From Vicinamibacteria bacterium (GTDB lineage Bacteria > Acidobacteriota > Vicinamibacteria > Fen-336 > JAGNNV01), in NCBI GenBank assembly GCA_017990495.1, contig JAGNNV010000004.1, positions 3,003-50,728 on the forward strand: a stretch of DNA of 47,726 bases, in the 5' to 3' direction. Positions 1 to 18,641 of this stretch are shown piece by piece. Numbering within the stretch: the first letter of the stretch is position 1; every line of letters begins with the position of its first letter. The translations under genes were made by a program, and so were the position numbers. Below the pieces are notes generated by a model, which made no database searches, had not been told where the DNA came from, and was given only the letters and a program-made list of their open reading frames with translations.

Positions 1-1682
1 GCGCCCTCACGGCGGCGGTGCAGGCAATTCGCGCGGGGCGGATCGTCGCGGTGAAGGGCATCGGCGGTTTCCATCTGATGTGCGACGCTCGGGACGACGC
101 GGCGGTGGGGGAAATGCGGCGGCGAAAAGGTCGCGAGGAGAAGCCCTTCGCGCTGATGTTCCCTGCTCTGGCCGCGGTGCGTGCGGTCTGCAATCTGAGC
201 CCGGCCGAAGAGAGGCTCCTCACCTCACCCGAGTCCCCCATCGTTCTCCTCCGTCGACACGGCGCGGAGCTCGCGCCGCGGATCGCGCCCGGCAATCCCT
301 ATCTCGGCGTGCTTCTGCCCTACGCGCCGCTCCACCATCTCCTGATGCGTGAGCTGGGCTTCCCTGTGGTCGCCACCAGCGGCAACCGCCACGACGAACC
401 AATCGTCACGAGAGAACCAGACGCCATCGACCGGCTCGCCGGCATCGCCGATTTGTTCCTCGTTCACAATCGACCCATCGCGCGTTACGCCGACGACTCC
501 ATCGCCCGAATCGTGGCGGGCCGACCCATGCTGCTACGCCGTGCTCGCGGCTACGCGCCACTGCCCCTCGCCGCCTCGCCGTCGCAAGAATCCATCCTGG
601 CGGTGGGCGCGCATCTCAAGAACACCATCGCCTTCTCGGTGGGCGGGCAGTTCATGGTCTCGCCGCACCTCGGCGATCTCGAGACGCCGCAGGCTCTCGT
701 CGGGTTTCACAACGTCGTGGCGAGCCTTCCCGGTCTCTACGGTTTTACTCCGACCCTCATCGCCCATGACCTTCACCCGGACTACGCGTCCACGCAGTAT
801 GCGGAAATGCAGCCGGGACGGCGGGTGGGTGTGCAGCATCACGCCGCCCATGTCTTCGCCTGTTTGGCGGACAATGAACTCGAAGGCGAGGTTCTGGGCG
901 TCAGCTGGGATGGAACCGGCCTCGGCACGGACGGAACGATCTGGGGCGGCGAGTTCCTCCACGTGCGCGACGGAGAGTTTCGCCGGGTGGCGCATCTGCG
1001 GACATTCCTTCTCGCGGGCGGCGACGCCGCGGCGAGAGAGCCAAGGCGCTGCGCGCTCGGCCTGCTCCATGCGGTGGGGGGCGACACCGCCCTTTCGGAG
1101 GCAGACCTTGGCGCGCGGCTCGGTTTCGAGCCCGCCGAACTGACCGTGCTTCGCGGCATGTTCAGGAGTGGCACGGGGGTTGCGCGCACGTCGAGCGCAG
1201 GGCGGCTCTTCGATGGCGTGGCCGGCCTCATCGGCCTTCGCTTGAGGGCCGCCTTCGAGGGACAGGCCGCGATGGATCTCGAGTTCGCGGCAATGGAGTC
1301 CGATGAGGGAGCCGCTTACGAGTTCGAACTCCAAGGCATGACGGTGGACTGGACCGCGATGATCCCCGCTATCGAAACCGATCGTCGCTCCGGCGTGCCG
1401 GTCGCCGTCATCGCGAAGCGCTTCCACAACACCCTCACCGAGATGATCGTGGCGGTGGCGAAACGGGAGGGACTGCCGAGGGTATGTCTGACCGGGGGCT
1501 GCTTCCAGAACCTGGTGCTCGCGGAACGAACGATCGCGCGTCTCACCGAAAGTGGCTTCGCTCCGTACTGGCATCAGCGGGTCCCGCCGAACGACGGCGG
1601 CATCGCCCTGGGCCAGCTCGTGGGCGCGGCCTTTCGGGCGCGCGGGGCGTCGTTATCGAATGGACTACACTCCCGCGAGTGA
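1..1682 (+). CDS. hypF: [NiFe]-hydrogenase maturation carbamoyltransferase HypF, C-terminal ~555 aa (5' end cut by window edge)
   Basis: ORF 18..1682 stays open to the window start. It has the YrdC/Sua5-like motif VAVKGIGGFHLMCDA and a Kae1-like C-terminal domain with VQHHAAH, both typical of HypF. The stop TGA 1680-1682 overlaps the next gene's GTG. Confidence 0.85.
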   Translation, partial: ALTAAVQAIRAGRIVAVKGIGGFHLMCDARDDAAVGEMRRRKGREEKPFALMFPALAAVRAVCNLSPAEERLLTSPESPIVLLRRHGAELAPRIAPGNPYLGVLLPYAPLHHLLMRELGFPVVATSGNRHDEPIVTREPDAIDRLAGIADLFLVHNRPIARYADDSIARIVAGRPMLLRRARGYAPLPLAASPSQESILAVGAHLKNTIAFSVGGQFMVSPHLGDLETPQALVGFHNVVASLPGLYGFTPTLIAHDLHPDYASTQYAEMQPGRRVGVQHHAAHVFACLADNELEGEVLGVSWDGTGLGTDGTIWGGEFLHVRDGEFRRVAHLRTFLLAGGDAAAREPRRCALGLLHAVGGDTALSEADLGARLGFEPAELTVLRGMFRSGTGVARTSSAGRLFDGVAGLIGLRLRAAFEGQAAMDLEFAAMESDEGAAYEFELQGMTVDWTAMIPAIETDRRSGVPVAVIAKRFHNTLTEMIVAVAKREGLPRVCLTGGCFQNLVLAERTIARLTESGFAPYWHQRVPPNDGGIALGQLVGAAFRARGASLSNGLHSRE

Positions 1683-4306
1683 CGCTCGAGTTCACGCTGA
1701 ACGGTCGGCCGGTCGTGGTCGACCCACGCGACGATGAGTCGCTGCTCGAGACCCTTCGCGACCGCTGCGGCATCCGCTCGACCAAGGACGGCTGCTCACC
1801 CCAGGGGCAGTGCGGTTGTTGTCTCGCCATCGTGGGCGGACGCGCGGTCACCACTTGCGCCATGCCCGCGAGCAAGGCCGCAGGCCTGGAAATCCTGACC
1901 CTCGAAGGCCTGCCCGAGGCCGAGCGGAAGCAGATGACCGACGCCTTCGTGGCCGCGGCCGGACTCCAGTGCGGGTTCTGCATCCCCGGGATCATGGTGA
2001 GGACGAAGCACCTGCTCGACAAGTCGCCCGATCCCTCGCGCGACGAAATCGCCAAAGCCATCGACGCGCACCTGTGTCGATGCACCGGGTACGTGAAGAT
2101 CATCGATGCGGTCGAGCTTCTGGCCCGAGCCCGTCGTGGCGAGACTGTAGCCAAGCCTCAGTACGATGGGGGTGTGGGCGAACGAGTCGCCCGCTATCGC
2201 GGCGCCGACCTGGCACTCGGCGAACGGCCCTACGTCGCCGACCTGCGACGCGACGGGATGCTCTTCGGTGCGTTGACCCTGTCGGCTCATCCCCGCGCGC
2301 GGGTGGTGCGCATCGATACATCGCGTGCTTCCGCGCACCCCGGCGTGGTGGCGGTCGCCACGTATCGCGATGTCCCCGGCGATCGGTGGTACGGCCTGAT
2401 CAAGCTCGACTGGCCGGGATTCGTGGCCGAAGGCGAAGAGGTTCGGTACGTCGGCGACGTAATCGCGGCGGTGGCCGCGGTCGATGCCCACACCGCGCAG
2501 GTCGCGGCGGATCTGGTCGAAGTCGAGTACGAGATCCTCCCCGCTGTCACCACCACCGAGGCGGCTCTCGCCCCGGGCGCCCCTCAGGTCAATCCGAAGT
2601 ACGGCAACGTGCTGTCGCACACGAAGATCCGCCGCGGCGAGGTCGACGCGGCCCTCGCGAAGAGCGCACACGTGGTCACCGGCACCTGGTCGACCCAGCG
2701 GATCGAGCACCTCTTCCTCGAACCCGAATCGGCTCTGGTCGAGCCGGGCGACCGACCCGGCACGTTCAAGCTCTACTCTCAGGGCCAGGGCGTCTTCGAC
2801 GACCGTCGGCAGTGCGCGTCTTTCCTTGGCATCGACGAAGAGGACTTCGCGGTCGAGCTGGTTCCAAACGGGGGCGCTTTCGGCGGCAAGGAAGACATGT
2901 CCGTCCAGGCGCAGACCGCTCTGCTCGCGAAGATGACTGGCCGACCCGTTTTGCTCACACTCACCCGCGAGCAGTCGATCCGCGTTCACCCGAAGCGCCA
3001 TCCCATCACCATGAGCTACACCGTGGGCTGCGATGCCGAGGGTCACCTCACCGCGGTCAAGGCCCACATGGTCGGCGATACCGGGGCCTACGCCTCGGTG
3101 GGCGCCAAGGTGCTGGAGCGGGCGGCCGGGCATGCGTGTGGTCCGTACCGCGTGCTGAACGTCGAGGTCGACGCCATCGCCGCGGTGACGAACAATCCTC
3201 CCTGCGGGGCGATGCGTGGATTCGGCGCGAATCAGTCGAGTTTCGCTATCGAAGGCTGCATGGACCTTCTGGCCGCGAAAGTCGGCATCGACGGCTGGGA
3301 GATGCGCTGGCGCAACGCCGTCGATGTGGGAGACACGTTCGCGTCGGGTCAGGTGTTCGAGAAGTCGGTGGGCATCAAGAAGACTCTTCTGGCCACCAAG
3401 GACGCTTACTACGCGGCTCGTGCTTCAGGCCGCGCGGTGGGCATCGCCTGCGGTCTCAAGAACAGCGGCATCGGCAATGGCGCGGTCGAGTGGGGCAAGG
3501 CCCGCCTGGTGGTCGAGTCCGATGGCACCATCTCGCTTTACAACGGCTACACCGAGATGGGCCAGGGGCTTCTCACCGTCCTCACCCAGTTCGCGGCCGA
3601 GGTCACCGGCCTCTCGCCCTCCATCTTCCGGCCCAAGGTCGATTCGACCTTCGCTCTCGGCTGCGGCCAGACCACCGGCTCGCGCGCGACACTGTTTGGC
3701 GGCAACGCGGTGAAGAGCGCGGCCGGACATCTGAAAGCCGCTCTCGATTCGGGTCGCCGTCTCTCCGACATGGTGGGCGAAGTTTTCGCGGCCGACGTGA
3801 AGGTTGATGACACCACCGCGCCGGGGGCGGACGTCGTGAAGGTGAAAACGCACACCTCGTTCGGCTTCGCCACTCAGATCTGCATCCTCGATGAAAAGGG
3901 CCGGGTCGATCGTTTTGTGGCCGCGCATGATGTCGGCCGAGCCGTGAACCCGGCCCTGTGCGAGGGCCAGATCGAGGGCGCCATTCACATGGGCCTCGGC
4001 TACGCGCTCACCGAGGAGCTGCCCTGCGAAGACGGTTGGCCGGTGACCTACAAGCTTCGCCAGCTCGGCGTCCTGCGCGCGCGCGACATGCCGAAGGTCG
4101 AGGTCATCCTCGTCGAGGATCCGGAGCCCGAGGGGCCGTTTGGGGCCAAGGGCGTGGGTGAGATCGGCCTGGTTCCAACGGCGGGCGCCGTGGCCAGCGC
4201 CCTTGCCGCCTTCGATGGGGTGTGGCGCAACACTCTGCCCATGAAGGACTCTCCGGCCTCCCGCGCCATGAGTGTCGGTCGGATCAAGTCCGCGACCAAG
4301 CCTTGA
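1679..4306 (+). CDS. Fused [2Fe-2S]/molybdopterin hydroxylase of the xanthine dehydrogenase / aldehyde oxidoreductase family (Mop / XdhD-like architecture)
   Basis: Lies in the frame of ORF 1484..4306. GTG 1679 forms a GTGA overlap with the hypF stop. The N-terminus carries a plant-type 2Fe-2S motif ([11 protein letters not shown]) and a second 2Fe-2S motif ([14 protein letters not shown]). These are followed by Moco-domain motifs GGAFGGKED and GAKGVGEIG. Confidence 0.85.
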
Positions 4307-18066: not shown

Positions 18067-18641
18067 CCGGGATCCCTGAGTCAGGAACGCGGATCGCGAT
18101 CCTTGGCTGTGGCAACCCAAGCCGCGGCGATGACGCGATCGGCCCGGTTCTTCTGGAAAGGGTGGAAGAGTGGACGCGCGCGCATCCCGGTCGCCCGGTG
18201 GTGGCGGCGCAGGACTTCCAGCTCCAGGTCGAACACGCGCTGGACATGGTGGGACGGGACCTGGTGTTGTTCGTGGATGCGAGCGCCGTCGGTCTCGATC
18301 CTTTTACTCTCCGCCCCGTTCTGGCCTCTGACCAGACGAGCTTCTCGACCCACGCCCTCTCTCCCCAGGCCTTGCTTCACACCTTCAACACCCTCGGCTG
18401 TGGCGATGCCCCCAAGGCGTTCTCGCTGGGTATCCGCGGCCACTCCTTCGAACTCGGGCAGCCGCTGTCGGCACAGGCCGCTCAGAACCTGGAGCAAGCC
18501 TGGAGCCTGGTCAAGGCGCTGCTGGAAAGCCCGTCAGAGAGTGACTGGGCGAGCCAGTGCTCACTTCAGGAGATAGATCACTCCGACGATCAATCCGATG
18601 GCGACCACCACGCGCCTGAGTCCATTCGGGCTGACTCGTGA
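18063..18641 (+). CDS. hoxW: Hydrogenase maturation endopeptidase HoxW/HycI family
   Basis: [19 protein letters not shown] motif. TTG start overlaps the hoxH stop. The acidic C-terminal tail runs 81 nt into the convergent TSUP gene. Confidence 0.8.

Follow-up and report, generated by a model that had tools for sequence, protein, structure and literature searches.

Gene Content of the Locus

The window analysed here is a 47,726-nt stretch of a Vicinamibacteria contig (JAGNNV010000004.1; G+C ~66%), and its subject is a set of genes at 1679–13228 that is wedged between hypF and a hydrogenase operon and is related to the ygfK-ssnA-xdhD locus of E. coli. The initial annotation, made before any database search, had read this set as an N-heterocycle catabolic cluster; homology and synteny bear this out and show the cluster to be conserved. 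Profile searches of the window proteins against NCBIfam/TIGRFAM and Pfam matched throughout, and the genes that had been listed are present, intact, and tightly packed, approximately where they had been placed.

Seven genes make up the catabolic block. Five of them lie on the plus strand: a hydroxylase, called Moco below, that fuses two [2Fe-2S] domains with a molybdopterin domain and has no flavin adenine dinucleotide (FAD) domain (1679–4306; TIGR03311); a short, 335-aa SsnA-like cyclic amidohydrolase (4303–5310; NF005540, core match only); two divergent fold-type II pyridoxal phosphate (PLP) enzymes, PLP1 of the CysK/CBS branch (499 aa; 5324–6823; weak PALP match) and PLP2 of a threonine-synthase-like branch (474 aa; 6820–8244; PALP, 98.6 bits); and a CN-hydrolase of the nitrilase superfamily (8241–9185; PF00795, E 6e-37). 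On the minus strand lie the remaining two, a 412-aa M20 amidase (9924–11162; TIGR01879) from the hydantoinase/carbamoylase family and YgfK-N, a truncated YgfK of 689 aa (11159–13228; partial match to TIGR03315) that combines a predicted flavin mononucleotide (FMN) barrel and two [4Fe-4S] clusters with the C-terminal domain of YgfK. Both the CN-hydrolase and the M20 enzyme are candidate N-carbamoyl amidohydrolases. A DedA/VTT-domain membrane protein (9197–9910, plus strand; PF09335) is a variable accessory gene outside the conserved block. No carbamate kinase or carbamoyltransferase gene goes with the set in the window, as had been noted at the outset.

The junctions between these genes read as two compact operons. 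The 3′ part of hypF (carbamoyltransferase HypF; 3–1682, plus strand) matches TIGR00143 with 529 bits (cutoff 466; model positions 199–738) as well as Pfam Sua5, HypF_C, and HypF_C_2; its N-terminus lies off the window, and the frame is open to the window edge. Its stop codon (TGA, 1680–1682) overlaps the GTG start of Moco at 1679 by four nucleotides (GTGA), and comparable overlaps join Moco to the SsnA-like gene (TTGA; TTG start at 4303), PLP1 to PLP2 (GTGA), PLP2 to the CN-hydrolase gene (ATGA), and, on the minus strand, the YgfK-N stop to the M20 gene (GTGA; GTG start at 11162). Judging from this spacing, the cassette is probably co-transcribed with hypF. Independent support for two of the refined starts comes from L165, a metagenome contig that is 100% identical to the window, in which a separate gene call gave a 335-aa SsnA-like protein and a 412-aa M20 protein; this agreement covers the SsnA-like and M20 starts only, as the L165 contig ends within the Moco gene. 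An exact-match look-up with the YgfK-like protein of the window found no entry, although the protein in P0001/L165 is identical to it.

The Reductive Urate Pathway as a Reference

The initial annotation described the E. coli locus as linked in the literature to purine and urate breakdown. That description is outdated: the function of the cluster in E. coli and Clostridium was worked out in two 2025 studies, which identified it as a pathway of reductive urate (2,8-dioxopurine) breakdown (Li et al., PMC12507026; Liu et al., bioRxiv 10.1101/2025.04.24.650524). Urate is converted into 2,8-dioxopurine by XdhD-YgfM using NADH, or by the clostridial XdhAC, which does not use NAD(P)H and whose physiological donor is not known; YgfK, an NADPH:2,8-dioxopurine oxidoreductase, then reduces the ring, SsnA opens it, and HyuA opens the resulting hydantoin. 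Two ureido groups are stripped by YgeW/YqeA or UacY, together with YgeY, and YgeX turns 2,3-diaminopropionate into pyruvate. Variants of the pathway differ in their reductant (NADH, ferredoxin, or F420) and in whether ureido cleavage is hydrolytic or phosphorolytic (PMC12507026; 10.1101/2025.04.24.650524). The published pathway consumes four electrons per urate, with formate required as a co-substrate in Enterococcus and E. coli, and according to current descriptions occurs only in obligate or facultative anaerobes, most of them from the gut. In the literature that we searched, we found neither a variant from acidobacteria or myxobacteria nor any link to a hydrogenase.

The Molybdenum Hydroxylase

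Moco scores above the cutoff of TIGR03311 (Se_dep_XDH; 936 bits, cutoff 830) and far below that of the XdhD-type model TIGR03313 (251 bits, cutoff 1102). The xdhD-type counterpart named in the initial annotation is thus a molybdenum hydroxylase, as proposed, but belongs to the TIGR03311 type and not to that of XdhD. The best match in the PDB is D. gigas MOP (1SIJ), which has the same FAD-less fused architecture. By description, not by sequence, this architecture is also that of C. sporogenes XdhAC, the 2,8-dioxopurine dehydrogenase (DOPDH), in which Fe-S and molybdopterin parts are fused and neither an FAD subunit nor NAD(P)H is involved. Three Moco motifs (GGKED, GAMRGFG, and GVGEIG) align with Glu802, Arg880, and Glu1261 of xanthine dehydrogenase (numbering of the bovine enzyme) and differ from those of aldehyde oxidoreductases; at the first two of these positions, Moco has Glu and Arg and E. 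coli XdhD has Gln. From its family membership and purine-binding residues, we propose that Moco is a 2,8-dioxopurine dehydrogenase-like enzyme of the XdhAC type.

The molybdopterin domain also matches 3HRD_A, the large subunit of E. barkeri nicotinate dehydrogenase. This match prompted us to consider nicotinate-type catabolism, which was rejected because the two ureido-amidohydrolases would have no role there. Long open reading frames (ORFs) in three relatives (1122, 1109, and 936 aa in L011, L012, and L068) at first resembled Moco-SsnA fusions, but their Moco and SsnA matches fall in different frames; ORF calling is prone to artefacts in high-GC DNA, and these fusions were retracted because the long ORFs are Arg-rich alternate-frame artefacts of this kind. 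As a separate observation, the first 2Fe-2S motif within the N-terminal 60 residues of E. coli K-12 XdhD (L081) is degenerate (DDGFGFAGSDA), and cysteines are present there in all other members.

YgfK-N, a YgfK Without Its NADPH Module

The match of YgfK-N to TIGR03315 (Se_ygfK) reaches 389 bits (cutoff 835) and is confined to positions 4–389 of the 1012 in the model. It shares 38% identity with residues 5–407 of E. coli YgfK and 34% with residues 904–979, and throughout its family the intervening Fer4_20/Pyr_redox_2 region that serves FAD and NADPH (E. coli residues 453–839) is replaced by a linker of ~70 residues. Two complete CxxCxxCxxxCP motifs for [4Fe-4S] clusters are present. This domain content indicates that YgfK-N is the substrate-reducing core plus an Fe-S wire, with no entry point for NAD(P)H.

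No match for the YgfK-like protein was found in the PDB by sequence. Its AlphaFold (AF2) model (mean predicted local distance difference test, pLDDT, 84.5; predicted template modelling score, pTM, 0.88) was matched by Foldseek to FMN-dependent dihydroorotate dehydrogenases (DHODHs) and to the FMN domain of pig dihydropyrimidine dehydrogenase (DPD) with E ~1e-7 and a probability of 1.0. In common with DPD and the class 1 and 2 DHODHs (pig DPD 1H7W and 1GT8), YgfK-N has a predicted FMN TIM barrel with a flexible loop that carries an invariant cysteine, here within an RPC98ID motif in a low-confidence loop of the model, and its two [4Fe-4S] clusters could feed the flavin as in DPD. The catalytic cysteine of DPD likewise sits on a loop, and by analogy we propose Cys98 as the proton donor of YgfK-N. 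Sequence identity to these enzymes is only 14–17%, and YgfK-N differs from them in having no FAD or NADPH domain and in an extra C-terminal β-rich domain that is common only to YgfK.

A few loci (L026 at 10001–15804, L052, L127, and L153) pair a truncated YgfK with only a carbamate kinase, a YgeW-like carbamoyltransferase, and an M20 enzyme, and no Moco or SsnA gene was found there within 10 kb of the truncated YgfK gene. The YgfK-N family may serve more than one pathway context.

The Short SsnA-Like Hydrolase

The SsnA-like protein matches NF005540 with 257 bits (cutoff 444; model positions 54–324) and TIGR03314 with 241 bits (cutoff 455), and is 40% identical to residues 53–323 of E. coli SsnA. 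It keeps the HxH, HIHVAED, AHG, and GTDG motifs, the HxH, His, His, and Asp ligands, and the C-terminal helix, and consists of the TIM barrel only; the N- and C-terminal strands of the β-sandwich (residues 1–50 and ~365–410 in E. coli) are missing. The same short form is conserved across the Vicinamibacteria/Myxococcota clade (L025, L032, L035, and others), and SAR324 has a full-length protein. We considered whether the window gene could be a pseudogene, which is ruled out by the conservation of the short form, the intact catalytic motifs, and the independent 335-aa gene call.

Ureido-Cleaving Candidates and PLP Enzymes

The M20 enzyme scores well above the hydantoinase/carbamoylase cutoff (TIGR01879, 438 bits, cutoff 204) and also above that of NF006769 (487 bits, cutoff 452), whereas the YgeY model returns 21 bits against a cutoff of 321. 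Its PDB matches are the L-carbamoylases 8APZ and 3N5F and the N-carbamoyl-β-alanine amidohydrolase 8C46. Of the four E. coli counterparts that the initial annotation had counted, three are therefore true homologues (Moco, SsnA-like, and YgfK-like), and the fourth, M20, is of the carbamoylase family and is not YgeY-like. The nearest PDB entries to the CN-hydrolase are the β-ureidopropionases 2VHH and 6FTQ, the N-carbamoylputrescine amidase 5H8I, and the D-carbamoylase 6LEI. Plausibly, given these family assignments, the CN-hydrolase and the M20 carbamoylase together supply functions analogous to those of YgeW/YqeA/UacY and YgeY, of which YgeW, YqeA, and YgeY have no homologue in the window (by BLAST, and for YgeY by profile). 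Two ureido-cleaving enzymes are what purine-derived 2,3-diureidopropionate requires, and their presence fits a purine substrate that yields two ureido groups.

Family profiles of the PLP enzymes searched against the PDB led to cysteine synthases for PLP1 (E 5e-25) and to threonine synthase for PLP2 (E 8e-18), with no match of PLP2 to diaminopropionate ammonia-lyase. Invariant features of PLP1 are K112, STGNYCRGG, and SATGSAGT; those of PLP2 are C8, C11, C24, and H34, which form an N-terminal Cys/His motif, and K134, SCGNAALA, and VGGGALA. Both proteins keep the catalytic Lys, the Asn loop, and the phosphate loop. Identity of either with YgeX was rejected, there being no BLAST match and the profiles pointing to cysteine and threonine synthases.

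Conservation of the Block

Two scans with the YgfK-like protein recovered 263 relatives from reference genomes and 248 from metagenomes, in all ~500 related sequence stretches, and 80 loci per scan (160 in total) were examined for their neighbourhoods. The ~680-aa architecture is constant, and a protein search gave 6,832 matches; the window protein is 91–93% identical to proteins from Vicinamibacteria metagenome-assembled genomes (MAGs). Hosts of the family include Acidobacteriota, Myxococcota, Planctomycetota, SAR324, Eisenbacteria, and Elusimicrobia.

Vicinamibacteria, Kofleriaceae, Nannocystaceae, and Polyangia all have the seven genes in one and the same convergent layout; Planctomycetota and Elusimicrobia have a complete or nearly complete block in which gene order varies. 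Where at least 15 kb of sequence was available (81 loci), YgfK-N is accompanied by Moco in 49, by the SsnA-like gene in 53, by the PLP pair in ~30, by the CN-hydrolase gene in 27, and by the M20 gene in 34, counts that are approximate because the neighbourhoods come from MAG and metagenome contigs and some loci are the same contig found in both scans (L022/L103 and L067/L113). DedA is found at only one of the 160 loci (L001); L165 carries it too, and L083 and L162 lack it. In one relative of 83% identity, a DEAD-box helicase gene lies between PLP1 and the SsnA-like gene of an otherwise intact block (L163, 17640–19394).

In other lineages, YgfK-N adjoins YgeW orthologues (up to 69–74% identity to E. 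coli YgeW), YqeA, and a YgeY-like M20 enzyme, and some of these loci also encode a 2Fe-2S/FAD subunit. In SAR324 the order ssnA-ygfK′-Moco-yqeA-acs-ygeW-ygeY is found on one strand, with an ssnA-ygfKN-Moco arrangement that resembles that of E. coli. These neighbours and the SAR324 gene order tie the YgfK-N family firmly to the ygf-type system.

The Hydrogenase Operon and Its Neighbourhood

The hox genes lie downstream of the block on the plus strand. The first, hoxEF (13412–15289), is a fusion of a NuoE-like 2Fe-2S part and a NuoF-like FMN/NAD diaphorase part (Pfam 2Fe-2S_thioredx, Complex1_51K, and NADH_4Fe-4S; NCBIfam nuoF and HoxE) whose ATG at 13412 follows an AGGAGG motif. It is followed by hoxU, encoding a NuoG-N-terminal-like Fe-S subunit (15293–16015; Pfam Fer2_4, NADH-G_4Fe-4S_3, and Fer4_Nqo3; NF005745 HoxU at 150 bits, below cutoff); hoxY, for the [NiFe] hydrogenase small subunit (16008–16547; PF01058 Oxidored_q6, with VhuG/FrhG-like NCBIfam matches); hoxH, for the large subunit (16561–18066); and, as the last gene of the operon, hoxW, for the maturation endopeptidase (18063–18641; TIGR00072, 79 bits, cutoff 47). 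HoxH finds its best PDB match in 5XF9_D, from an NAD-reducing hydrogenase (554 bits, E 1.8e-165), and with the HoxF/U diaphorase, HoxY, and the endopeptidase present, the operon encodes a group 3d NAD-coupled [NiFe] hydrogenase. The position of the set between hypF and such an operon was correctly described at the outset. Like the Hydrogenophilus thermoluteolus enzyme (5XF9) and other group 3d hydrogenases, the system has NuoE/F/G-like diaphorase subunits, a small subunit, and a HoxW protease; it differs in the fusion of HoxE with HoxF and in the separation of the hox operon from the hyp genes by the 11.7-kb cassette.

Given the hoxEF start at 13412, the divergent intergenic region between YgfK-N and hoxEF is 183 nt long (13229–13411), the spacing originally reported. 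Its YgfK-N-proximal leader (13229–13300) is conserved (coding strand GGGCGTATCGTCCAA ... GTTTCCCCACA ... TCATGA) and is kept in L083 and L162, that is, with and without hox; it has no Rfam match and is a possible regulatory site. In L083 the intergenic region is ~330 nt longer (9489–10000), with the flanking genes at ~90% DNA identity. An Rfam E-value scan of 1–21000 for a riboswitch or other ligand clue found nothing relevant, and scans of this DNA for sigma-70 promoters (none found) and intrinsic terminators (background level) were uninformative.

The initial annotation had asked whether the hyp/hox adjacency is conserved, and comparison of neighbourhoods speaks against this. Of the 160 loci, only two (L083 and L010), both from the window's own Vicinamibacteria subclade, have a hox or hyp gene within 10 kb of the YgfK-like gene, and among ~11 close relatives the adjacency is confined to the window lineage with L165, L083, and L010, in two configurations. 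L083 (93% identity) has the arrangement of the window, including the GTGA overlap of hypF and Moco. L010 (85% identity) instead has a contiguous hypB-hypD-hypE-hypF-hoxEF operon, with a gap of 79 nt between hypF and hoxEF, and the block lies upstream of it with the YgfK-like gene divergent from hypB; in the window, by comparison, the 11.7-kb cassette occupies the exact junction of hypF and hoxEF. Further close relatives at 79–91% identity (L001–L005, L085, and L163/L164) have unrelated neighbours, such as aminotransferase and Amidase_2 genes.

The most telling relative is L162 (92% identity), in which ~55 codons of hoxEF are joined directly to residues 61–167 of hoxW by a clean deletion of ~4.74 kb corresponding to window positions ~13522–18259. 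Homology with the window ends 18 nt before the Moco start and hypF is absent, and all seven catabolic ORFs are intact at 82–97% identity. The scar itself, at 9464–9945 of L162, joins the equivalents of window 13340–13521 and 18260–18553. Because adjacency is seen at 2 of 160 loci, is rearranged in L010, and has been followed in L162 by loss of hox with an intact block, we conclude that it dates from the ancestor of a small subclade, changes readily in evolution, and is not needed for the block to be retained.

These data bear on whether the hydrogenase is functionally coupled to the block, such that electrons from H2 would reduce urate by way of the HoxEFU Fe-S clusters, ferredoxin, or NADH, or H2 would be evolved from purine oxidation. 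Several points speak for this idea: the published pathway must find four electrons per urate and has formate as a required co-substrate in Enterococcus and E. coli, the literature names no physiological donor for XdhAC-type enzymes, and Moco and YgfK-N both do without NAD(P)H modules and have exposed Fe-S clusters. The four-nucleotide overlap of hypF and Moco (also kept in L083), the divergent start of YgfK-N and hoxEF 183 nt apart, and the occurrence of the block beside hyp/hox in two configurations (the window and L010) point the same way. The adjacency is nevertheless never seen outside one Vicinamibacteria subclade, most of the close relatives sampled (79–92% identity) have other neighbours, and L162 has deleted the stretch from hoxEF′ to ′hoxW, and has no hypF, with its seven catabolic ORFs intact. 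A group 3d enzyme naturally produces NADH, and as Moco and YgfK-N have no module with which to bind it, Hox could not supply either of them directly in this form. No shared regulatory element was found in the Rfam, promoter, and terminator scans. We therefore regard coupling to H2 as very unlikely, and the H2/NADH-coupled degradation suggested in the initial annotation is not supported, as relatives keep the cluster away from hox and hyp (adjacent in 2 of 160 loci), the pattern which that annotation had itself named as telling against it. The specific route in which Hox is the physiological reductant of the XdhAC-type enzyme and the FAD-less YgfK, with electrons passing from H2 through HoxYH to the HoxEFU Fe-S clusters and on, directly or through ferredoxin, to the 2Fe-2S and 4Fe-4S centres, and with expression tied through the hypF-Moco overlap, appears highly improbable; if true, it would mean H2-driven purine mineralisation in an aerobic soil phylum.

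A gene island for low-oxygen conditions, co-regulated and without electron coupling, could also account for the arrangement. Both modules include metal centres that are sensitive to oxygen and could be of use where soil microsites are hypoxic, and read-through from the hyp operon into the block would be tolerated or favoured. The four-nucleotide overlaps from hypF through the CN-hydrolase gene suggest a single transcript, the published pathway runs anaerobically, and repeated local rearrangements have kept the modules close together in the window, L083, and L010. However, the neighbourhood has been lost in most relatives and YgfK-N is preceded by a conserved leader that belongs to the block itself, and we consider this explanation unlikely.

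We favour, at a probability of roughly 60%, a reading in which the locus comprises two separable modules that are adjacent only in this lineage. One is the seven-gene block with its variable DedA gene (1679–13228), which would constitute a fully hydrolytic variant of the 2,8-dioxopurine pathway that is free of NAD(P)H modules; the other consists of the hyp genes and hoxEFUYHW, and the placement of the first beside the second would reflect local rearrangement, not a functional unit that relatives retain.

A Proposed Hydrolytic Variant of the 2,8-Dioxopurine Pathway

In the pathway that we propose for the block, the FAD-less 2Fe-2S/Moco enzyme would interconvert urate and 2,8-dioxopurine, an assignment suggested by its family membership and purine-binding residues. 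YgfK-N would then reduce the ring, with electrons passing from the [4Fe-4S] clusters to FMN and with Cys98 as the proton donor; the substrate in this step is assumed from the 38% identity to E. coli YgfK. The barrel-only SsnA-like protein, whose catalytic motifs are in place, is predicted to open the ring. The two ureido groups would be hydrolysed by the CN-hydrolase and the M20 enzyme in place of YgeW/YqeA and YgeY, at the price of the ATP otherwise gained through carbamoyl phosphate. One or both of the PLP enzymes could finally eliminate a β-substituent to give pyruvate and ammonia. For the opening of the hydantoin, the step of HyuA, the block offers no candidate gene. An Fe-S or ferredoxin-type partner would presumably be the electron donor, and one can speculate that, starting from hypoxanthine, hydroxylation, dehydroxylation, and reduction balance electronically, so that the Moco/YgfK′ pair could shuttle electrons internally.

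With the E. coli ygf/xdhD cluster, the block shares a homologous trio (Moco hydroxylase, the catalytic and ferredoxin domains of YgfK, and the SsnA barrel) and an overall logic in which dehydroxylation is followed by reduction and opening of the ring, loss of two ureido groups, and a final PLP-dependent step. It differs in lacking the FAD subunit YgfM, the Fer4_20/Pyr_redox_2 module of YgfK, and the β-sandwich of SsnA, and in having the CN-hydrolase, the M20 carbamoylase, and two unrelated PLP enzymes where E. coli has HyuA, YgeW, YqeA, YgeY, and YgeX; its Moco is of the TIGR03311 and not the TIGR03313 type and has Glu/Arg where XdhD has Gln/Gln. The C. difficile XdhD/UacX/UacY system is, by description, similar in its ring reductase without an FAD domain (presumed to be ferredoxin-dependent) and in hydrolytic ureido cleavage by UacY. 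However, the clostridial reductase is a PydA-type UacX and not a truncated YgfK, its ureido groups fall to a D-aminoacylase-like UacY and YgeY and not to a CN-hydrolase and M20 pair, and HyuA and YgeX have no equivalent in the window; the hosts of the window type belong to soil and marine phyla and are not gut anaerobes.

Several observations count against this reading. The SsnA-like and YgfK-like proteins score below the curated equivalog cutoffs. Moco is 26% identical to E. coli XdhD, the sole DOPDH reference aligned, and the insertion that carries Glu606 of XdhD is absent from it. A tblastn search with E. coli HyuA found no match in the 47.7-kb window and a match at 1 of the 160 loci, and BLAST found no YgeX-type lyase in the window; without HyuA and a YgeX-type lyase, the downstream chemistry cannot be identical to that of the published pathway. 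Neither a dihydropyrimidinase nor the selenium-cofactor markers YqeB, YqeC, and SelD were found in the window (across the 160 loci, a YqeB-like gene is near 7 and YqeC near none). Lastly, the blocks of the window and L165, of L083, and of L010 all adjoin hyp or hox, with the hypF/Moco overlap kept in L083, and this recurrence in three versions within the subclade leaves room for a functional or regulatory link in this lineage.

Some of these points could equally signal a different N-heterocycle, such as a pyrimidine, another oxopurine isomer, or a pterin-like compound, processed downstream by the two PLP enzymes. HyuA and YgeX are absent and these two unusual enzymes are always found instead, the SsnA-like and YgfK-like scores fall short of equivalog level, Moco departs from XdhD at residues said to orient urate, and published work holds that regiochemistry within the family is not predictable from sequence. 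Against this stand the Glu802, Arg880, and Glu1261 equivalents of Moco, which are typical of xanthine and urate binders, and its passing of the TIGR03311 cutoff; two ureido-amidohydrolases, moreover, suit a purine with its two ureido groups and not a pyrimidine, and the same YgfK-N family occurs in SAR324 clusters with YqeA and with YgeW orthologues that share 68–74% identity with the E. coli protein. A different heterocycle is thus distinctly unlikely in our view, and urate or 2,8-dioxopurine is the substrate that we would assign. The initial annotation had held that the substrate could not be told from sequence, but the 2025 pathway, the three Moco residues, and the pair of ureido-amidohydrolases narrow it to a class.

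Neighbouring Genes

Two ORFs that might have been taken for additional hox-linked genes (18648–19463 and 19364–20896, plus strand) were rejected as spurious on account of their GC3 of 0.66–0.72 and Arg-rich junk composition. The true genes 3′ of hoxW lie on the minus strand and encode a TauE/SafE-like membrane protein (18561–19346) and a membrane protein with a CGHC thioredoxin-like motif (19376–20722). Two adjacent small paralogous ORFs follow on the plus strand (20951–21334 and 21350–21694), with signal-peptide-like N-termini and Arg/Tyr/Gly/Asp-rich repeats (YRRGY, RGYRR). Further on, an ADOP-family duplicated permease (23203–27072, minus strand; TIGR03434, 673 bits) lies beside a DUF6596 ECF sigma factor; neither is related to the catabolic block. 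The permease hints at Acidobacteriota, and together with the G+C content and the 91–93% identity of the YgfK-like protein to Vicinamibacteria proteins it assigns the window to Vicinamibacteria.

Implications

This type of pathway became known in 2025; neither the specific variant described here nor its wide distribution in soil and marine lineages was found in the literature that we searched. The variant sharpens the question of the electron donor, on which the hydrogenase neighbourhood is only a weak lead, and it supplies a natural minimal YgfK and a natural minimal SsnA for enzymology. It would also widen the ecological scope of anaerobic-type purine mineralisation to soil, freshwater, and marine phyla.

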